The notes under the pieces are model-generated. The model saw only the letters and a program-made list of their open reading frames with translations, had not been told where the DNA came from and made no database searches. Positions 24,120 to 32,855 of a stretch of 64,000 nucleotides of DNA are shown in pieces. The position numbers were made by a program, and so were the translations under genes. Every line of letters starts with the position of its first letter. Position 1 is the first letter of the stretch. The stretch is from Escherichia coli (GTDB lineage Bacteria > Pseudomonadota > Gammaproteobacteria > Enterobacterales > Enterobacteriaceae): NCBI RefSeq assembly GCF_041248615.1, contig NZ_CP158426.1; one strand, given 5' to 3'.

Positions 24120-25106
24120 TCAGGAGAAAACTTCGATACCTTGCTTGCGCATGGAGGCCAGTCGATAGCGCAGTGCGCGCGGGGTAATGCCTAACAGGTC
24201 GGCAATTTTGCTGCGGTTGCCCTGATATTTACGCATCAGGTCGGCGATATATTGATACTGGGCGCTACGTCCGGCCTGGCCTAAATCGCTGGTTTCCGCA
24301 ACAGATACGGAGGGCTGAACAGGCCATTGCAGTTCACTGTGATCGGCAACGTCTATTTCCGGCAGGCCTAAGGCATCCGGGAAAATCACGCCGTCGCGAT
24401 TTAAAATCATTCCACGCTGAATGGCGTTCTCCAGCTGGCGCACGTTGCCGGGCCAGCGGTAATTGAGCAGCGCCCGGCGAGTAGATTCTGAAAGGGTGAT
24501 ATTTTTCACCAGCACTGTGGAGTATTTTTTAATAAATGACTCTGCCAGCGGGATAATATCGTTCAGGCGTTCACGCAGCGGCGGCATGGTAATAGGAATA
24601 ACCGCCAGACGATAATAGAGATCTTCACGAAAACGCCCGGCGGCGACTTCCTGCTCAAGGTTTTTATTGGTGCAGGCAATCAGGCGAAAATTGAGTTTAA
24701 TTTGTCGGTTACTGCCTAATCGCTCAACCTGCTGTTCCTGCAATACGCGTAATATTTTGGCCTGTAGCGCCAGCGGCATATCGCCAATTTCATCGAGCAA
24801 TAAGGTGCCGTTATTCGCCAGTTCCATTTTTCCTGGCACGCTGGCAATTGCGCCGGTAAATGCGCCTTTGTCGTAGCCAAATAAGGTAGATTCCAGCATG
24901 TTTTCCGGGATCGCCGCGCAGTTCACGCCGATATAGGGCGCGTTATCATTTTCACCAAAGGCTACGGTGTGAATATATTTCGCCACGCATTCTTTGCCCG
25001 CGCCGGTTTCGCCCTGAATGAGCACCGGCACGTTAAATGCGGCGACACGCTTTGCCAGAGTAAAAGCGTTAATGCTGGAAGCGGCAGTTGCAATAAGTTC
25101 AGACAT
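24120..25106 (-). CDS. lafK: sigma-54-dependent transcriptional activator (LafK-like), no N-terminal receiver domain
   Basis: 328 aa; Walker A GETGAGKE, GAFTGA sigma-54 contact motif, C-terminal HTH. Confidence 0.9.
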   Translation of the reverse strand: MSELIATAASSINAFTLAKRVAAFNVPVLIQGETGAGKECVAKYIHTVAFGENDNAPYIGVNCAAIPENMLESTLFGYDKGAFTGAIASVPGKMELANNGTLLLDEIGDMPLALQAKILRVLQEQQVERLGSNRQIKLNFRLIACTNKNLEQEVAAGRFREDLYYRLAVIPITMPPLRERLNDIIPLAESFIKKYSTVLVKNITLSESTRRALLNYRWPGNVRQLENAIQRGMILNRDGVIFPDALGLPEIDVADHSELQWPVQPSVSVAETSDLGQAGRSAQYQYIADLMRKYQGNRSKIADLLGITPRALRYRLASMRKQGIEVFS

Positions 25107-25261
25107 AGGGTGAACGATATAAGTAGCGACAGAAAACAGGATGTTCTGAAGCGTATCACCGGCGGGATTAACAAGTTCGAATTAAACGATAATAAAAATA
25201 TTATTTGATGGTAAACAATTAGTTAGATATTAATACTGTTAATTTGGACATCTGTGATGCC

Positions 25262-25303
25262 CCCTCACCCTAACCCTCTCCCCGGATGGGGCGAGGGGAC
25301 AGA
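25262..25303. repeat. GC-rich imperfect palindromic intergenic repeat (copy A)
   Basis: cccctcaccctaaccctctccccggatggggcgaggggacag; reverse complement shares ctgtcccctcgcccc..ggggagaggg with the copy at 31735. Confidence 0.35.
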
Positions 25304-25478
25304 CCGCAGACTGATTGGCGAAAATCACTCCCATTAAGCAATTAATCGATTAATTATTTTTTCATCCTATTAATAATTTGCCCCTTTCACTCCCCCTCTA
25401 TTTAATACCTCACCTTGTGTCACTGCCTGATTTGCGTGCACAAAATCGCCCATACCATTACAGCAGAGAAAGTAAGCC

Positions 25479-26330
25479 ATGCTGAAGTACAGTAAAACGC
25501 CAGGCATCTTTAAATTAGAAGGTAATCGGCTCGGACGCCCCTACCATCGCCTGCCGACCCTGTTCACGGGGAATTTTGACGTGATTGATTCGCATCTTGG
25601 CAGCTACTTTCTCAAAAAGCATCGCAGCAATATCACCTTAAAAAAGATTGGCTGCGAAATGGATATCATTAATAAAAACGCCGAGCTGATGGTTTCCCAG
25701 GTCGGGCATCTGGCGTTTGATATTGATCGCTCCTTGCTGTTAATGCTGCTGGGCAATTTTTATGGTCTGGAGTCGTCTCTTGAAGAGGCGAAAGACCATA
25801 ATGGCCTGCCGACCAAAACCGAAACGCGGTTAAAGAACCGCCTCGCGCTGGATATCTGTACGCTGATTTTTAATCTGCAAACCTCCGGTATTGCGCTGAA
25901 ATTAAAGCTGGATAGCAGCACGGTGATTACCCACTGGGCGTATCAATTAACCTTTACCCTCGCGGGTGATGAAGAGAGCAGTTTTCGTATTTTGCTCGAC
26001 GACGCCCATACCGATTTTATTTTAAATCTGATCCGCCACAGCGAGCACAGTAAACCGCAGCAGGTGGCGAAATCCGTTAATAAACCGGCCCTGATTAAAG
26101 AAATCATCCGCTCCCTGCCGTTGACTCTGAACGTCAAAATCGCCGAGCTGTCGCTGAATGTCGCGGATCTCACGCAGATAAAAGCCGGGGATATTTTACC
26201 CATCTCGCTGGGAGAAACGTTCCCGGTGGCGATTGGGCAATCTGAATTATTTAGCGCCCTGATTGTGGAAGACAAAGACAAACTGTTTTTGTCGGAGCTG
26301 GCGGGCAAAAATGAGAATAGCCATGAGTAA
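25479..26330 (+). CDS. lfiM: Flagellar motor switch protein FliM-like
   Basis: 283 aa; position upstream of fliN; moderate family resemblance. Confidence 0.75.
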   Translation: MLKYSKTPGIFKLEGNRLGRPYHRLPTLFTGNFDVIDSHLGSYFLKKHRSNITLKKIGCEMDIINKNAELMVSQVGHLAFDIDRSLLLMLLGNFYGLESSLEEAKDHNGLPTKTETRLKNRLALDICTLIFNLQTSGIALKLKLDSSTVITHWAYQLTFTLAGDEESSFRILLDDAHTDFILNLIRHSEHSKPQQVAKSVNKPALIKEIIRSLPLTLNVKIAELSLNVADLTQIKAGDILPISLGETFPVAIGQSELFSALIVEDKDKLFLSELAGKNENSHE

Positions 26331-26694
26331 GCAAGAAGATATTTTAGCCGGGGATTTTGGCCTCACCGATGAAGTTGCGCCTGTCGCGAAATCCGCCGAC
26401 GCTGAAACGCTGGTCACCCGCCTGGAAGACCGCTTTTCCGACTCGATGACGCTGCTGAAACGCATTCCGGTGACCTTAACGCTGGAAGTGTCGTCGGTGG
26501 AAATTATGTTAGCCGACCTGCTTAACATCGACGACGACACGGTGATTGAGCTGGATAAGCTCGCCGGGGAGCCGCTGGATATCAAAGTGAACAATATCCT
26601 GCTGGGCAAAGCGGAAGTGGTGGTGGTCAACGAGAAGTACGGCCTGCGCGTGCTGGAGTTTAACACCCGCGATATCAACGACCTGGCACCATGA
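26323..26694 (+). CDS. lfiN: Flagellar motor switch protein FliN
   Basis: SpoA-type C-terminus (LDIKVNNILLGKAEVVVVNEKYGLRVLE); ATG at 26323 overlaps fliM stop; alternative start 26311. Confidence 0.85.
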   Translation: MSKQEDILAGDFGLTDEVAPVAKSADAETLVTRLEDRFSDSMTLLKRIPVTLTLEVSSVEIMLADLLNIDDDTVIELDKLAGEPLDIKVNNILLGKAEVVVVNEKYGLRVLEFNTRDINDLAP

Positions 26695-27443
26695 AACGCC
26701 GCACTCAACTGACGCTGGGCCTTGGGCTGCTGGCGCTTGCGCCGCTGGCGTTGGCCCAGGGGGGCGATATTGCGCTGCTTAACGTGGTCACCCACGGCAA
26801 CACTCAGGAGTACAGCGTCAAAATCCAGGTTCTGATTCTGATGACCCTCGTCGGTTTGCTGCCGACGATGGTGCTGATGATGACCTGCTTTACGCGCTTT
26901 ATTATCGTGCTGTCGCTGCTGCGCCAGGCGCTGGGGCTGCAACAAACGCCGCCAAACCGTATTCTGATTGGCATTGCGCTCTCCCTCACCATGCTGGTGA
27001 TGCGCCCTATCTGGCTCAATATTTACGACCACGCGGTGGTGCCGTTCGAAAACGATCGGATTACGCTGACCGATGCGTTAAGCACCGCCGCGACGCCGCT
27101 GAAACGCTTTATGCTGGCGCAGACCGACAAAAAAGCGATGGCGCAAATCATGACCATCGGCGGCGCAAAGGGCAATGCCGCCGACCAGGATCTCTCGATT
27201 GTGGTGCCCGCCTATGTGTTGAGCGAGCTGAAAACGGCCTTCCAGATTGGCTTTATGATTTACATCCCGTTTCTGGTTATCGACCTGATTGTCGCCAGCG
27301 TATTGATGGCGATGGGGATGATGATGCTGTCGCCGCTGATTGTTTCGCTGCCCTTTAAACTGATGCTGTTTGTGCTGATCGACGGCTGGTCGCTGACAAT
27401 CGGTACGCTCACCACCAGCATTCGCGGGCTGGGGCTGGGCTGA
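26691..27443 (+). CDS. lfiP: Flagellar export apparatus protein FliP
   Basis: 250 aa; signal peptide plus conserved FliP membrane core. Confidence 0.9.
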   Translation: MKRRTQLTLGLGLLALAPLALAQGGDIALLNVVTHGNTQEYSVKIQVLILMTLVGLLPTMVLMMTCFTRFIIVLSLLRQALGLQQTPPNRILIGIALSLTMLVMRPIWLNIYDHAVVPFENDRITLTDALSTAATPLKRFMLAQTDKKAMAQIMTIGGAKGNAADQDLSIVVPAYVLSELKTAFQIGFMIYIPFLVIDLIVASVLMAMGMMMLSPLIVSLPFKLMLFVLIDGWSLTIGTLTTSIRGLGLG

Positions 27444-27445
27444 TT

Positions 27446-27718
27446 ATGTTGACCGTAGACGTAGCCGCCGACATTGTCGCCAGCGGCATTAAAGTGGTGA
27501 TTTTACTGGTTTCGGTACTGGTAGTGCCAAGCTTGCTGGTTGGCCTGCTGGTGAGCGTGTTCCAGGCGGTGACGCAGATTAACGAACAGACCCTGAGTTT
27601 TTTGCCGAGGCTGATTGTCACGCTGGTGGTGCTGGGCGTGTGCGGTAAATGGATGATTATCCAGTTGCATGATCTGTGCATTCATCTGTTTACCCAGGCC
27701 GCCCTGCTGGTGCATTAA
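27446..27718 (+). CDS. lfiQ: Flagellar export apparatus protein FliQ
   Basis: 90 aa, two-TM FliQ pattern. Confidence 0.9.
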   Translation: MLTVDVAADIVASGIKVVILLVSVLVVPSLLVGLLVSVFQAVTQINEQTLSFLPRLIVTLVVLGVCGKWMIIQLHDLCIHLFTQAALLVH

Positions 27719-27719
27719 G

Positions 27720-28502
27720 ATGCGCACAAGCGACGTTACGCAACTGATGGATCTGGCGCTGGGGCTGTGGTTTCCCTTCGTGCGCATTATGGCGTTTCTG
27801 CGCTATGTGCCGGTGCTGGATAACAGCGCCCTGACCGTGCGCGTGCGGATTATTTTGTCGCTGGCGCTGGCAATCATCATCACGCCGTTGATCCCCCATC
27901 CCATTCCCCACGATCTGCTTTCACTCAACAGCCTGATCCTGACGGTGGAGCAAATTTTATGGGGCATGTTGTTCGGGCTGATGTTTCAGTTTCTGTTTCT
28001 CGCGCTACAACTGGCCGGACAAATTCTCTCGTTCAATATGGGGATGAGCATGGCGGTGATGAACGACCCGAGCAGCGGCGCATCGACCACCGTGCTGGCG
28101 GAGTTAATCAACGTCTATGCGATCCTGCTGTTTTTTGCCATGGACGGGCATCTGCTGCTGGTAAGCGTGCTGTATAAGGGCTTCACCTACTGGCCGATTG
28201 GCAACGCGCTGCATCCGCAAACCCTGCGCACCATCGCGCTGGCCTTTAGCTGGGTGCTGGCGTCCGCATCACTGCTGGCGCTGCCGACCACCTTCATCAT
28301 GCTGATTGTGCAGGGCTGCTTTGGCCTGCTCAACCGCATCGCGCCGCCGCTGAACCTCTTTTCGCTCGGCTTTCCCATCAACATGCTGGCGGGGCTGGTT
28401 TGCTTTGCCACCCTGCTCTACAACCTGCCGGATCACTATCTGCATCTGGCGAATTTTGTGTTGCAGCAACTCGACGCGCTGAAAGGTCACTATGGCGGAT
28501 AG
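27720..28502 (+). CDS. lfiR: Flagellar export apparatus protein FliR
   Basis: Multi-TM; start set to ATG 27720 immediately after fliQ stop. Confidence 0.85.
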   Translation: MRTSDVTQLMDLALGLWFPFVRIMAFLRYVPVLDNSALTVRVRIILSLALAIIITPLIPHPIPHDLLSLNSLILTVEQILWGMLFGLMFQFLFLALQLAGQILSFNMGMSMAVMNDPSSGASTTVLAELINVYAILLFFAMDGHLLLVSVLYKGFTYWPIGNALHPQTLRTIALAFSWVLASASLLALPTTFIMLIVQGCFGLLNRIAPPLNLFSLGFPINMLAGLVCFATLLYNLPDHYLHLANFVLQQLDALKGHYGG

Positions 28503-29631
28503 CAGCAGCGAAGAAAAAACAGAGAAACCCTCGGCGCAAAAGCTGCGTAAAGCGCGTGAAGAGGGGCAACTGCCGCGCTCGAAGGATATGGGGCTGGCAG
28601 CGAGCCTGTTTGCGGCGTTTGTGGTGATCTCCAGCAGCTTCCCGTGGTATGCCGATTTTGTGCGCGAGAGTTTTATCAGCGTGCATCAGTACGCGCAGGA
28701 GATTAATAACCCGCAGGTGATCGGTCAGTTTCTGCGCCACCACCTGTTAATTCTCGGCAAGTTTATCCTTACGTTGCTGCCGATGCCCGCCGCCGCGCTG
28801 CTCTCTTCGCTGGTGCCGGGCGGCTGGCTGTTTCTGCCGAAAAAAATCCTCCCGGATTTCAGCAAAATTAGCCCGTTAAAAGGCATTGGGCGTCTGTTTT
28901 CCAGTGAACATCTGGCGGAAACGGGAAAGATGACGGTGAAGTCTGCCGTGGTGCTGGTGATGCTGTGGGTAAGCCTGCGCAATAACTTTGCCGCCTTTCT
29001 CGGCCTGCAGGCGCTGCCGTTCAAACTGGCGATGAATGACGGTTTGTCGCTCTACGCCAGCGTGATGCGCAACTTTGTCATCCTGTTTATTTTCTTTGCG
29101 CTTCTCGACGTGCCGCTGGCGAAAGCCCTGTTCACCAAAGGGCTGAAGATGACCAAACAAGAACTGAAAGAAGAGTACAAAAATCAGGAAGGCAAGCCGG
29201 AAGTGAAGGCGCGCGTGCGGCGGCTGCAACGGCAGCTGGCGATGGGGCAAATTCGCAAAGTGGTGCCAAAGGCCAACGTGGTGATCACCAACCCGACCCA
29301 CTACGCCGTGGCGTTGCAGTATGACCAGTCGCGTGCCGCCGCGCCGTTTGTGGTGGCGAAAGGCACCGATGAAATCGCCCTCTATATTCGCCAGGTCGCT
29401 GCTGAAAGTCAGGTGGAAGTGGTCGAGTTCCCGCGGCTGGCGCGCTCGGTTTACTACACCACTCAGGTGAATCAGCAAATTCCTTTTCAGCTTTACCGGG
29501 CTATCGCCCACGTTCTGACCTACGTCCTGCAAATGAAACACTGGCGCGAGGGCGCACAGCCGCGCCCGGCCCTGAACAGACATATTTCCATTCCCAAAGA
29601 GGTGCTTAAACTGGATGGCGAAAACAACTAA
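28492..29631 (+). CDS. lfhB: Flagellar export apparatus protein FlhB
   Basis: 379 aa; N-terminus EKTEKPSAQKLRKAREEGQLPRS typical of FlhB; NPTH autocleavage motif present. Confidence 0.9.
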   Translation: MADSSSEEKTEKPSAQKLRKAREEGQLPRSKDMGLAASLFAAFVVISSSFPWYADFVRESFISVHQYAQEINNPQVIGQFLRHHLLILGKFILTLLPMPAAALLSSLVPGGWLFLPKKILPDFSKISPLKGIGRLFSSEHLAETGKMTVKSAVVLVMLWVSLRNNFAAFLGLQALPFKLAMNDGLSLYASVMRNFVILFIFFALLDVPLAKALFTKGLKMTKQELKEEYKNQEGKPEVKARVRRLQRQLAMGQIRKVVPKANVVITNPTHYAVALQYDQSRAAAPFVVAKGTDEIALYIRQVAAESQVEVVEFPRLARSVYYTTQVNQQIPFQLYRAIAHVLTYVLQMKHWREGAQPRPALNRHISIPKEVLKLDGENN

Positions 29632-31708
29632 ATCGTTCCTCGCGCTGCTGCGCGGCGGCAATCTCGGCGTGCCGCTGGTGATCCTGTGTATTCTGGCGAT
29701 GGTTATTCTGCCGCTGCCGCCTGCGTTGCTGGATATTCTGTTCACCTTCAACATTGTGCTGGCGGTGATGGTGCTGCTGGTGGCCGTGTCGGCGAAACGT
29801 CCGCTGGAATTCAGCCTGTTCCCGACCATTTTGCTGATCACCACCTTAATGCGCCTGACGCTCAACGTTGCTTCTACGCGCGTGGTGTTGCTGCACGGGC
29901 ATCTCGGCGCGGGCGCGGCGGGTAAGGTGATTGAGTCATTTGGTCAGGTGGTGATTGGCGGCAACTTTGTCGTCGGCTTCGTGGTGTTTATCATCCTGAT
30001 GATCATCAACTTTATCGTCGTCACCAAAGGGGCCGAGCGTATTTCCGAGGTTTCTGCCCGCTTTACCCTGGACGCGATGCCCGGCAAACAGATGGCGATT
30101 GACGCCGATCTTAACGCCGGGTTGATCAACCAGGCGCAGGCGCAAACCCGGCGTAAAGATGTTGCCAGCGAGGCCGATTTCTACGGCGCAATGGACGGGG
30201 CATCGAAGTTTGTGCGCGGGGATGCCATCGCCGGGATGATGATTCTGGCGATCAACCTGATCGGCGGCGTCTGTATCGGGATCTTCAAATACAACCTGAG
30301 CGCCGATGCCGCCTTCCAGCAATATGTGCTGATGACCATCGGCGACGGCCTGGTGGCGCAGATCCCGTCCCTGCTGCTTTCCACCGCGGCGGCGATTATC
30401 GTCACCCGCGTCAGCGACAACGGCGATATTGCCCATGACGTGCGTAACCAGTTGCTGGCAAGCCCGTCGGTGCTCTACACCGCCACCGGGATCATGTTTG
30501 TGCTGGCGGTTGTGCCGGGGATGCCGCATCTGCCGTTTTTGCTGTTCAGCGCCCTGCTTGGTTTTACCGGCTGGCGGATGAGCAAACGCCCGCAGGCGGC
30601 GGAGGCGGAAGAGAAAAGCCTCGAAACACTGACCCGAACCATCACCGAAACCAGCGAGCAACAGGTCAGTTGGGAAACTATTCCGCTGATCGAGCCCATC
30701 AGCTTAAGCCTCGGCTACAAGCTGGTGGCGCTGGTGGACAAAGCACAGGGTAACCCGCTCACCCAGCGGATTCGCGGCGTGCGGCAGGTGATTTCTGACG
30801 GTAACGGCGTGCTGCTGCCGGAGATCCGCATTCGGGAAAACTTCCGCCTCAAGCCCAGCCAGTACGCCATTTTCATCAATGGCATTAAGGCTGATGAAGC
30901 GGATATTCCGGCGGATAAACTGATGGCCCTGCCCTCCAGCGAAACCTACGGCGAGATTGACGGCGTGCTGGGGAACGACCCGGCGTACGGGATGCCGGTG
31001 ACCTGGATCCAGCCCGCGCAGAAAGCGAAAGCGCTGAATATGGGGTATCAGGTGATCGACAGCGCCAGCGTGATTGCCACCCATGTGAACAAGATTGTCC
31101 GCAGCTATATTCCTGATTTGTTTAACTATGATGACATCACGCAGTTGCATAACCGTTTGTCGTCGATGGCACCGCGCCTGGCGGAAGATTTGAGCGCGGC
31201 GCTCAATTACAGCCAATTGCTGAAAGTGTACCGGGCGCTGCTGACCGAAGGCGTTTCCCTGCGCGATATTGTCACCATCGCCACCGTGCTGGTCGCCAGT
31301 AGCACAGTGACCAAAGATCATATCCTGCTGGCGGCCGATGTGCGCCTGGCATTGCGGCGCAGCATTACCCATCCGTTCGTTCGCAAGCAGGAGCTGACGG
31401 TGTATACGCTGAATAATGAGCTGGAAAATCTGCTCACCAACGTGGTGAATCAGGCGCAACAGGGCGGGAAAGTGATGCTCGACAGCGTGCCGGTCGATCC
31501 GAATATGCTCAACCAGTTCCAGAGTACGATGCCGCAGGTAAAAGAGCAGATGAAAGCGGCGGGGAAAGACCCGGTGCTGCTGGTGCCGCCGCAGTTGCGT
31601 CCTTTGCTGGCGCGTTATGCAAGGTTGTTTGCGCCGGGGCTGCATGTGCTGTCGTATAACGAAGTGCCGGACGAGCTGGAGTTGAAGATTATGGGGGCGT
31701 TGAGTTGA
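29615..31708 (+). CDS. lfhA: Flagellar export apparatus protein FlhA
   Basis: 697 aa; FlhA N-terminal TM domain and FHIPEP motif region. Confidence 0.95.
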   Translation: MAKTTKSFLALLRGGNLGVPLVILCILAMVILPLPPALLDILFTFNIVLAVMVLLVAVSAKRPLEFSLFPTILLITTLMRLTLNVASTRVVLLHGHLGAGAAGKVIESFGQVVIGGNFVVGFVVFIILMIINFIVVTKGAERISEVSARFTLDAMPGKQMAIDADLNAGLINQAQAQTRRKDVASEADFYGAMDGASKFVRGDAIAGMMILAINLIGGVCIGIFKYNLSADAAFQQYVLMTIGDGLVAQIPSLLLSTAAAIIVTRVSDNGDIAHDVRNQLLASPSVLYTATGIMFVLAVVPGMPHLPFLLFSALLGFTGWRMSKRPQAAEAEEKSLETLTRTITETSEQQVSWETIPLIEPISLSLGYKLVALVDKAQGNPLTQRIRGVRQVISDGNGVLLPEIRIRENFRLKPSQYAIFINGIKADEADIPADKLMALPSSETYGEIDGVLGNDPAYGMPVTWIQPAQKAKALNMGYQVIDSASVIATHVNKIVRSYIPDLFNYDDITQLHNRLSSMAPRLAEDLSAALNYSQLLKVYRALLTEGVSLRDIVTIATVLVASSTVTKDHILLAADVRLALRRSITHPFVRKQELTVYTLNNELENLLTNVVNQAQQGGKVMLDSVPVDPNMLNQFQSTMPQVKEQMKAAGKDPVLLVPPQLRPLLARYARLFAPGLHVLSYNEVPDELELKIMGALS

Positions 31709-31734
31709 TGGGGGAGACTATATAAGGTCTCGGA

Positions 31735-31764
31735 CTGTCCCCTCGCCCCTTTGGGGAGAGGGAG
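31735..31764. repeat. GC-rich imperfect palindromic intergenic repeat (copy B, inverted relative to copy A)
   Basis: ctgtcccctcgcccctttggggagagggag downstream of lfhA. Confidence 0.35.
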
Positions 31765-31805
31765 AAAAACGTGTACGACTTTAACTTTTTCGCAGTATTG
31801 CCGTC

Positions 31806-32564
31806 CTACAAAATCGTCTCTTCCGTCAAAATCCTGCGCGCGCCTAAAAAATGATCCTGCCAGAAAGGTTCAGCTAACCGACTTACCCGAATGGTTTCCC
31901 CGGTGCGCGGCGACTCGATAAACTGACCGTCTCCCAGATACACGCCCATATGATCGGCAATCTCGCGGCTGTGGATATGGAAAAACAGCAAATCTCCCCG
32001 GCGCAGGTCGTTGTTCGCCACAATCGTTGCCCGATGGTAGTGATACATCTCATTGGCCGTGCGCGGGAGCTTCGCCTCGAGGATCTTGTTGTAGGCATAA
32101 AAAACCAACCCGCTACAGTCGAAGCCTTGATCGGGCCGCGTGCCGCCCCAGACGTAAGGCTTGCCAAGCTGCTGCTCCAGGCGGTGAATCGCCACTTCGG
32201 TGATGTTGTGTAGATGGTCGCTGCTTAAGAAATGGTTGTTCTCCGCCAGCGCCTGCCAGCGTCTGTCACTTGCCTTGAGCGGCGCAGGAAACCATTCTGG
32301 ATGCTGTTTTATCTGTTCGCGGTTGTGCTGGCGCAGCGCCTTTCTGCTTTCGGCATTGCCTTCCACAATATAGCTGGCCTGTTTTTTCAGATGGGTTTGG
32401 TACTGTTTTAATAAACGCGCACGGTTTTGCATCCGCTGGCGGGCGGCGTAGCTGAAAGAGATATGTGATGTGGTGGCGCTGGCGAGTAAAGGGAGCAAAA
32501 CGCATAACGAAAACACGCCTGGATGCAGAAATCTGCCGTGAAAGAACGAAGACATGAAGGACAT
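31806..32564 (-). CDS. yafL: NlpC/P60 family peptidase YafL
   Basis: 252 aa; catalytic Cys context GFDCSGLV; near-identical to E. coli YafL as recalled. Confidence 0.85.
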   Translation of the reverse strand: MSFMSSFFHGRFLHPGVFSLCVLLPLLASATTSHISFSYAARQRMQNRARLLKQYQTHLKKQASYIVEGNAESRKALRQHNREQIKQHPEWFPAPLKASDRRWQALAENNHFLSSDHLHNITEVAIHRLEQQLGKPYVWGGTRPDQGFDCSGLVFYAYNKILEAKLPRTANEMYHYHRATIVANNDLRRGDLLFFHIHSREIADHMGVYLGDGQFIESPRTGETIRVSRLAEPFWQDHFLGARRILTEETIL

Positions 32565-32855
32565 AAACCGGCTGAATGAAGGTGAGAATTTTAAAAGACC
32601 AGAGGAGTAAACGGGATTATTAATTGCTTATTTGCATATTACTATTGAGGTTTCATAATCTTAGGAAATAAATGATACATGCGCTTTTCGGACTAATGAA
32701 AACTGCCCCTGTGCTAAATTTGTAAACCCTGCGCCGACAGGCTTGCGTAAAACTCTTTTGGTGATAATGTGAGCCTTCCAAATCCAGACTATTCCGATTT
32801 GGGATCCATTTTGCCGTCCTGGCGTGTGTAACCGTTTTATCAAGGAATAAGCAGT

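Follow-up and report, generated by a model that had tools for sequence, protein, structure and literature searches.

GC-rich palindromes flanking the lfiM-lfhA operon of Escherichia coli belong to the BoxC repeat family and lie in intergenic hot spots of cassette exchange

Results

Two members of the BoxC family flank the lfiM-lfhA operon

Analysing a 64 kb stretch of Escherichia coli DNA (hereafter the window), we find that the two GC-rich imperfect palindromes bordering the lfiM-lfhA operon, U on the lfiM side and D on the lfhA side, are members of the BoxC family, also described as PIT elements or TMECO triplex motifs. We hold this assignment to an already known repeat family with high confidence. 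U lies on the minus strand, 176 nt 5′ of lfiM (25260-25302), and D on the plus strand, 27 nt 3′ of lfhA (31735-31762). The initial annotation had reported inverted copies of a GC-rich palindrome on both sides of this operon, and we recover both of them there, in the gene context it had given. It had further suggested that they belong to a dispersed intergenic repeat family; that family is BoxC, with a median of 14 places per genome and sequences identical to published K-12 copies.

Both sites are intergenic. U sits between a divergently oriented gene for a sigma-54 activator, the lafK homologue (24120-25106, minus strand), whose start is about 155 nt away, and lfiM (25479-26330, plus strand). 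It is upstream of both divergent genes and thus in no 3′ end. D sits in the 97-nt spacer between the convergent lfhA (29615-31708, plus strand) and yafL (31806-32564, minus strand), beginning 27 nt past the lfhA stop and about 44 nt past the yafL stop. The plus-strand sequence of U is CCCCCTCACCCTAACCCTCTCCCCGGATGGGGCGAGGGGACAG (reverse complement, CTGTCCCCTCGCCCCATCCGGGGAGAGGGTTAGGGTGAGGGGG), and that of D is CTGTCCCCTCGCCCCTTTGGGGAGAGGG. In a repeat search, their inverted arms (25281-25306 and 31731-31756) extend over 26 nt with 85% complementarity, and the longest exact stretch in common is 15 nt.

Short repeats of this family are already documented at many places in E. coli genomes (Holder et al. 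2015, Nucleic Acids Res 43:10126, PMC4666352), and that study cites the BoxC descriptions of the 1990s and the PIT studies of the Maher laboratory. Its consensus has three blocks, CCCTCNCCC N3-6 GGGNGAGGG N3 GGGNGAGGG: a C-rich block, a near-complement that forms a hairpin with it, and a second G-rich block (PMC4666352). Loop 2 reads TTA in type A and CCG in type B units, and where two units lie close together in inverted orientation, one is always an A and the other a B; 23 copies were reported in MG1655 (PMC4666352). The features that we recognise in the window are as follows.

25260-25302, minus strand: U, a complete type A BoxC/TMECO unit carrying a single mismatch in its stem (exact three-block consensus match; alignable with the type A copies of K-12, PMC4666352, Table 1); layout 5′ flank CTGT, block 1 CCCCTCGCCCC, loop ATCC, block 2 GGGGAGAGGG, loop TTA, block 3 GGGTGAGGGGG
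25288-25297, minus strand: U block 1, C-rich, CCCTCGCCCC (sequence and consensus match)
25274-25283, minus strand: U block 2, G-rich, GGGGAGAGGG, pairing with block 1 with one G.A mismatch (sequence, consensus match and folds)
25271-25273, minus strand: U loop 2, TTA, which defines type A (typing per PMC4666352)
25260-25270, minus strand: U block 3, GGGTGAGGGGG, again G-rich; corresponds to the third strand of the triplex described in vitro
31735-31762, plus strand: D, a BoxC remnant with type A 5′ flank CTGT, block 1 CCCCTCGCCCC, loop TTT and block 2 GGGGAGAGGG
31763-31771, plus strand: AGAAAAACG, complementary to TTTTCY, the usual 5′ flank of type B units (K-12 and L002 flank comparison, deletion mapping)
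25226-25349, no strand: variable cassette of the lafK-lfiM intergenic region, which carries U (alignment)
31716-31800, no strand: variable segment of the lfhA-yafL intergenic region, which carries D (matches to its flanks alone in most genomes)

The three-block consensus is matched exactly by U (25262-25297, minus strand), with 0.00 matches expected by chance. The two-block pattern CCCTCNCCC N3-6 GGGNGAGGG occurs in the window at U and D only (0.00 expected), and these two sites also account for both occurrences of GGGGCGAGGGGA and both of GGGGAGAGGG in the 64 kb (0.30 and 0.07 matches in shuffles). D consists of blocks 1 and 2 alone; it fits the two-block pattern and not the three-block consensus, and without block 3 only the hairpin remains. 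U and D are therefore not equivalent copies, having three blocks and two. Across an alignment that includes five type A copies from K-12, the core did not vary. Compared with the listed K-12 copies, U differs in loop 1 (ATCC) only, and D is identical to nt 1-23 of K-12 copies 7, 11, 15 and 3 (PMC4666352, Table 1).

Searching Rfam over 24900-32100 with permissive filters, we obtained no family above threshold, and nothing at D. The eukaryotic element Antizyme_FSE scored 25.6 bits at U, below its threshold of 40, and was treated as spurious.

The isolated G-rich strand of BoxC forms an intrastrand purine-motif triplex in vitro, as CD and NMR showed for oligonucleotides of types A and B, both mismatched and mismatch-free; a stable triplex was not seen in vivo (PMC4666352). 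The folding model that we used covers Watson-Crick and G-U pairs only.

BoxC is dispersed through nearly all E. coli genomes

Scanning 5,426 complete E. coli genomes, we located 69,007 BoxC places in 5,407 of them, with a median of 14 and a maximum of 26 per genome. Nearly all are chromosomal (25 of the 69,007 are plasmid-borne), and among the matches listed genome-wide there was no annotated feature under BoxC. A genome-wide motif search and conservation across strains had been proposed as checks in the initial annotation. The dispersal was borne out, and conservation at the two sites was not: U is present in 57 of 1,284 genomes and BoxC at the D site in 127 genomes.

Both flanking intergenic regions exchange cassettes among strains

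The lafK-lfiM intergenic region occurs in 1,284 genomes. U was counted as present where at least 80% of the intergenic query was covered, and the genomes outside the 57 match the two flanks only, about 386 nt apart. The 120 nt on each side of the U cassette are conserved, and most Flag-2-positive strains hold a REP-pair cassette of about 140 nt in place of U (the REPs were seen in EC416 and strain 042).

At the lfhA-yafL query, most genomes match only positions 1-156 and 242-401 (31560-31715 and 31801-31960 of the window). The 127 genomes with BoxC there comprise about 21 with an intact pair and about 106 with a collapsed form. In place of the segment that holds D in the window, other strains carry the full A+B BoxC pair, REP arrays, REP-rayT-REP or hicB. 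In strain 042, the reference for Flag-2, REP elements occupy both sites and rayT is present at the D site as well. In K-12, Flag-2 is deleted and rayT occupies the lfhA-yafL site; the U and D loci are absent and so fall outside the 23 listed K-12 copies. D-site BoxC alleles are also found in records with an FlhA feature that lacks the gene name flhA. In the Flag-2-deleted K-12, YDC107 and THO-006, which have other D-site alleles, a bare FlhA label sits on a truncated lfhA pseudogene; the pseudogene reading comes from these three records, and the FlhA labels of the BoxC-allele records from a listing.

The K-12 BoxC locus tauD-hemB, taken as a control, is also polymorphic. BoxC is kept there in 3,593/5,417 genomes, and the alternative allele has a different hairpin instead. 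At U, D and tauD-hemB the alleles differ by whole-cassette replacement, and we saw no empty-site allele with clean insertion boundaries at any of the three. Both operon-flanking regions are hot spots at which cassettes are swapped among strains. In the comparison of operon boundaries among Flag-2 strains, also proposed in the initial annotation, U and D occur in a minority of strains. The local instability does hold: both sites are multi-allelic and D itself appears to be a deletion remnant.

D is probably the deletion remnant of an inverted A+B pair

In strain CFIAFB20140388, the site allelic to D carries two full BoxC units, so D is a truncated member of the family. The full D-site allele consists of a type A unit (TTA), a 15-nt spacer and an inverted type B unit (CCG). 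In the L002 double unit at this site, the type A unit equals K-12 copies 7, 11 and 15, and the type B unit equals copy 3 (PMC4666352, Table 1). As single-stranded DNA, the intact pair folds into a 34-bp stem (−45.4 kcal/mol, z = −8.8).

Ancestrally, the D site would have carried this inverted pair of A and B units, which together form a nearly perfect palindrome some 100 bp long. D would then have arisen by loss of 64 nt between two direct repeats, GGGGAGAGGG and GGGGCGAGGG, at a 5-nt microhomology (GAGGG), probably through replication slippage across the palindrome. Removing 64 nt from the L002 double unit gives the window allele save for one T in a T run, and six equivalent placements of the deletion share GAGGG. 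The stretch AGAAAAACG (31763-31771) is probably the outer flank of the lost B unit, now abutting the A-unit hairpin and marking the deletion junction. The reading of D as a deletion remnant of an A+B pair takes its polarity from parsimony and from the recurrent A+B architecture. A collapse of paired sites to a stem-loop has been described as the "palindrome effect" (Holder et al., PMC4666352). With intact and collapsed alleles both sampled, the D locus is a clear case in nature of a BoxC double unit becoming a hairpin.

Comparison with REP elements, MITEs and terminators

U and D show no difference in kind from BoxC/PIT/TMECO elements. The consensus, the A and B loops, the inverted A+B pairing, the intergenic multi-copy chromosomal setting, the collapse from pair to hairpin and the locus polymorphism are all the same; D, unlike full members, no longer fits the three-block definition.

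REP/BIME elements with RAYT (rayT, formerly yafM) are also short, GC-rich, imperfect palindromes that are dispersed and intergenic, and in other E. coli strains they occupy exactly the U and D sites. The REP sequence (roughly GCCGGATGCGGCGTGAACGCCTTATCCGGCCTAC) is, however, unrelated to BoxC and has no third G-rich block. U and D lack the REP consensus palindrome with its conserved GTAG/CTAC end and share no sequence with the REPs found at the same sites. The stretch CCGTCCTAC adjoining yafL was considered as a REP remnant and set aside as suggestive only, since 5 of its 9 bases overlap the yafL stop and last codon.

Like MITEs, BoxC in its paired form consists of long inverted repeats at the two ends with a short spacer between them. 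For BoxC, however, no target-site duplication or cognate transposase is identified, and its alleles differ by cassette replacement rather than insertion against an empty site. No dedicated transposase is known for BoxC, and no mobility genes lie near the K-12 BoxC sites (Holder et al., PMC4666352). Intrinsic terminators resemble D in having a GC-rich hairpin shortly past a stop codon but, unlike D, are followed by a T run.

Possible functions of U and D

We considered whether D, and perhaps U, serves as a generic RNA 3′ hairpin that protects lfhA mRNA, yafL mRNA or both from 3′-5′ exonucleases, or damps read-through between these convergent genes, in a REP/BIME-like manner. REP arrays can stabilise upstream mRNA. 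Performing the RNA folding that the initial annotation had called for, we find that the U and D hairpins are stable as RNA and that a 9-bp GC-rich hairpin is kept on both strands of the lfhA-yafL spacer. D is close to both stops, no other terminator-like site was found in this spacer, and the REP arrays in other alleles of the D site would fit selection for some hairpin there; the different hairpin in the alternative tauD-hemB allele points the same way. However, there is no T/U run on either strand (the sequence that follows the hairpins reads AGAAAAAC on the plus strand, GACAGTCC on the minus), and the whole-spacer folds are ordinary for their composition (z = −1.0 and −2.2). BoxC is at the D site in 127 genomes only, and U is in no 3′ end. 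In earlier work of the Maher laboratory cited by Holder et al. (PMC4666352), PIT elements showed neither promoter nor terminator activity and left RNA polymerase unaffected. We therefore consider a generic 3′ hairpin role unlikely.

The narrower proposal of the initial annotation, that the repeats act as terminators, did not hold up. Scanning 24900-32100 for terminators gave nine candidates, none at U or D and no more than in shuffles; no T run follows the hairpin at either copy, and the published PIT tests were negative (PMC4666352). A promoter scan found nothing at either copy, with counts no higher than in shuffles.

A second idea is that BoxC and REP/RAYT are alternative occupants of the same intergenic landing pads. 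Its basis is that at both sites other strains have REP pairs, REP arrays or rayT as alleles of the BoxC cassette, and we regard it as quite improbable. If the landing pads were shared, BoxC might be spread or exchanged by the single-strand, hairpin-targeting process that moves REPs, or both might be drawn to fragile sites. K-12 carries rayT and not BoxC at lfhA-yafL, and therefore the K-12 survey of Holder et al. could not have shown a link with REP. The replacement of BoxC, REP/BIME, rayT and a toxin-antitoxin gene by one another at the two hot spots may help studies of repeat turnover in E. coli.

U could also be a structure-forming or protein-binding regulatory DNA element of the lafK/lfiM control region, acting in sigma-54-dependent expression. 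Its location 5′ of both genes (about 155 nt from the lafK start, 176 nt from lfiM) and its stable structure (z about −4) would suit such a role. Yet about 96% of the genomes with this intergenic region hold a REP-pair cassette there between conserved flanks. Allowing up to 2 mismatches, we found no sigma-54 consensus in 25107-25478, and the window as a whole gave fewer matches than shuffles did. The family is not associated with a gene class or with start-codon distance (Holder et al., PMC4666352). We give this regulatory role very little credence.

The initial annotation had also raised the possibility of recombination substrates bracketing the operon, so that inverted U and D would switch or rearrange lfiM-lfhA as a block. 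The inverted orientation at the two operon boundaries agrees with this, as does the association of BoxC with genomic variability (PMC4666352). The evidence against it is that the copies have at most 15 exact bases in common. In E. coli, roughly 23-27 bp are required for RecA-dependent exchange. Searching with a synthetic query for the predicted inversion junction at ≥80% coverage, we found it in 0/5,426 genomes, and the U flanks lie about 386 nt apart on one strand in 1,284 genomes, with only 9 more places than records. One or both copies are, moreover, absent from most Flag-2 loci. Recombination between the copies is largely refuted, and we attach next to no probability to it. Finally, a chance match of GC-rich low-complexity sequence, favoured by the short match length and nothing else, is refuted by the 0.00 matches expected from shuffles and the recurrence of the unit about 14 times per genome.

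As BoxC members, U and D carry, we infer, no role specific to the flagellar export operon. The sole effect supported for U and D is the one published for the family, namely structure-prone DNA associated with raised local rearrangement. U and D are not conserved parts of the Flag-2 export-gate operon and are unfit for annotation as a terminator or regulatory boundary, with little consequence for flagellar biology.

The motif outside enterobacteria

The motif is present far outside the enterobacteria: a contig scan gave at least 120 stretches with it, which for the loci examined belong to three organisms. A tblastn search of 1.07 Mb of motif-bearing loci in other phyla gave no RayT-like transposase. 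Conservation of the BoxC block sequences in distant phyla suggests that the motif is more than neutral filler. In Mitsuaria chitosanitabida, the same motif appears as divergent pairs with GAAGA...TCTTC bounds and variable interiors.

Two BoxC elements lie on either side of the lfiM-lfhA operon

The window carries the Flag-2 (lateral flagella) locus on a segment of the E. coli chromosome, and NZ_OW967178.1 is 100% identical to it across 7 kb. We confirmed that inverted GC-rich copies stand on either side of the lfiM-lfhA flagellar export operon, as the initial annotation had proposed.

BoxC copies flanking the operon (sequences read on the plus strand)
25260-25302, minus strand: upstream copy, U, CCCCCTCACCCTAACCCTCTCCCCGGATGGGGCGAGGGGACAG; in the spacer of 372 nt that separates lfiM from the divergent sigma-54 activator gene (lafK homologue)
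31735-31762, plus strand: downstream copy, D, CTGTCCCCTCGCCCCTTTGGGGAGAGGG; in the spacer of 97 nt that separates the convergent genes lfhA and yafL

Reverse-complemented, the right-hand two thirds of U give D, the loop excepted. A repeat search of the window paired the two as inverted arms of 26 nt with 85% complementarity. The 12-mer GGGGCGAGGGGA and the 10-mer GGGGAGAGGG are found nowhere else in the 64 kb (0.30 and 0.07 matches in shuffles, respectively).

Both copies are members of a family named first BoxC, next PIT element, and then TMECO by Holder et al. 2015 (PMC4666352), with the consensus CCCTCNCCC N3-6 GGGNGAGGG N3 GGGNGAGGG (PMC4666352). At 25262-25297 on the minus strand, U fits this consensus without deviation (0.00 expected by chance). 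Its loop 2 is TTA and its block 1/block 2 stem contains a single G.A mismatch, which puts U in the "type A mm" class, the commonest type in K-12 (PMC4666352). D matches the consensus in its first two blocks only, and membership was established for both copies by direct comparison with K-12 type A copies. Aligning U, D, the type A unit of strain CFIAFB20140388 and five K-12 type A copies, we find an invariant core and about 15 nt on the 5' side that are less alike.

The suggestion of a dispersed intergenic repeat family was borne out. Using the 43-nt U unit as query, we located 69,007 places; of 5,426 complete E. coli genomes, 5,407 had at least one (median 14 and maximum 26 per genome). Only 25 of these places are plasmid-borne, and among the matches listed none has an annotated feature under it. 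The finding is already known in kind; both loci are missing from the K-12 list because K-12 does not have them. U and D are not REP/BIME elements. Rfam placed neither in a family; a subthreshold match to the eukaryotic Antizyme frameshift element over U (25255-25312; 25.6 bits, threshold 40) is, almost certainly, an artefact caused by a GC-rich hairpin.

D as a probable deletion remnant

In the 7-kb alignment, several sequences closely related to the window carry 63 extra bases, and in CFIAFB20140388 these map to the D site. There, a complete type A unit is separated by a 15-nt spacer from a complete, inverted type B unit, the units being identical to K-12 copies 7/11/15 and copy 3 (Table 1, PMC4666352). 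Removal of 64 nt from the CFIAFB20140388 sequence yields that of the window, a single T in a T run being the only difference. The deletion has six equivalent placements with the common microhomology GAGGG, which sits within the direct repeats GGGGAGAGGG and GGGGCGAGGG (9/10 matching). The type A 5' flank CGGACTGTC is kept to the left of D, and the complement of the type B 5' flank, AGAAAAACG, to the right; both flank types are seen again at K-12 copies. Judged from these sequences, D is the remnant of an A+B double unit after deletion. Paired BoxC sites collapse to a stem-loop likewise (Holder et al., PMC4666352).

As single-stranded DNA, the intact A+B pair is predicted to form a 34-bp stem (-45.4 kcal/mol, z = -8.8) and D to fold at -9 kcal/mol (z = -1.7). 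When replication slips across a long palindrome, the classical result is a deletion between short direct repeats, and such slippage would have produced the D deletion. The pair is retained in about 21 complete genomes and the collapsed form occurs in about 106, as read from row order among the 127 genomes covering at least 80% of the query.

Few strains have BoxC at both sites

The operon was found in 1,289 of 5,426 E. coli genomes, in agreement with 24 of 100 strains in De Maayer et al. (PMC6993521). Conservation of the flanking elements across strains did not hold up. The lafK-lfiM spacer is covered to at least 80% in only 57 of 1,284 genomes; in the others just the two spacer ends match, about 386 nt apart, and the genomes read have a REP-pair cassette in place of 25226-25349. 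At the D site, BoxC in either form is present in only 127 genomes. Therefore at most 57 genomes have BoxC on both sides, about 1% of all and 4% of Flag-2 carriers. In E. coli 042, the Flag-2 reference strain, the U site is occupied by REP pairs and the D site by rayT with REPs; the 50 kb examined contained no BoxC motif.

A swappable cassette makes up the middle of the lafK-lfiM spacer (25226-25349; 410-560 in comparison locus L003, 45912-46298 in L133). It consists of BoxC with unique flanks in 57 genomes and, in the other 1,230 or so, of REP pairs that come in at least two arrangements; roughly 120 nt at either outer side of the spacer are conserved. The lfhA-yafL spacer (31704-31805; compared with L002, from CFIAFB20140388, and L004, L005, L006 and L133) is a multi-allelic hot spot. 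Its alleles are the BoxC A+B pair, the collapsed BoxC hairpin, REP arrays, REP-rayT-REP (K-12, 042) and the hicB antitoxin gene, and the last two codons and stop codon of lfhA vary with the cassette. A second small hairpin, GAGAC-TATATAAG-GTCTC (31714-31733), between the lfhA stop codon and D, is part of the BoxC-bearing cassette and is not in the REP, rayT or hicB alleles. Beside yafL, CCGTCCTAC (31801-31809) equals the end of the K-12 REP at the same place and contains the yafL stop codon; it may be a leftover of an earlier REP, but coding sequence constrains 5 of its 9 bases.

The K-12 BoxC locus tauD-hemB (L129, L134 and L135 for the locus and its alleles) is likewise polymorphic, being kept in 3,593 of 5,417 genomes. 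In an alternative allele, the whole 106-nt spacer is replaced by an unrelated 39 nt that forms a hairpin of its own, ATGCCGGGTT-GGAT-AACCCGGCAT; in a third, 51 nt are inserted immediately 5' of the BoxC unit. The frlR-yhfS locus is polymorphic too. Between yafL and dpaA, K-12 has the dinJ-yafQ toxin-antitoxin pair (L004, 3256-4161) and the window merely a 291-nt spacer (32565-32855). In some close relatives the 7.0-kb query stretches over 7.39-7.69 kb, with extra annotated features, which implies an insertion of about 0.4-0.7 kb in or beside the operon.

No operon-specific role is apparent for U and D

The best-supported reading is that U and D are ordinary BoxC elements in two intergenic hot spots, without an operon-specific role. 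The only evidenced effect is the local instability described for BoxC, of which D is an example. The main rival, a generic 3'-hairpin effect stabilising mRNA, has the predicted stability of both RNA hairpins in its favour, and D sits in two 3' regions without other terminator-like structure; we nevertheless consider it rather unlikely. Regulation of the neighbouring genes by U is unlikely, since about 96% of carriers hold a different cassette between the conserved flanks; no sigma-54 consensus was found in the lafK-lfiM spacer.

The interpretation in the initial annotation was partly supported: it was right about a repeat family, and its recombination and terminator proposals were not borne out. 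Recombination between U and D would invert the operon; their longest exact identity is 15 nt, a synthetic inversion-junction query was covered to at least 80% in 0 of 5,426 genomes, and in practically every carrier the flanks of U still lie together on a single strand. An intrinsic terminator identity was rejected, as T runs are absent after both hairpins on both strands and a terminator scan flagged neither copy; earlier experiments on these elements likewise detected neither promoter nor terminator activity, nor any effect on RNA polymerase (Holder et al., PMC4666352).

Allelism with REP/rayT and the motif beyond E. coli

The least ordinary finding is the allelism of BoxC with REP elements and rayT, seen at both sites. 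Holder et al. state that mobility genes were never found near BoxC sites (PMC4666352); theirs was a survey of K-12 sites, to which this allelism was invisible. Two sites make no rule, and a mechanistic link between BoxC and REP/rayT is improbable.

Among the matches listed, Mitsuaria chitosanitabida (L015-L126), a Methylomirabilota MAG (L007-L014) and a Contendobacter MAG (L022-L024) are rich in the three-block motif, its block sequences unchanged. Its presence in unrelated bacteria is consistent with the more than 260 genomes reported (PMC4666352). No RayT homologue was found near the motif in 1.07 Mb of loci from other phyla. The Mitsuaria loci examined contain at least 150 matches. The units there often form divergent pairs with GAAGA...TCTTC ends around interiors that vary and are sometimes tandemly repeated, and they look MITE-like.
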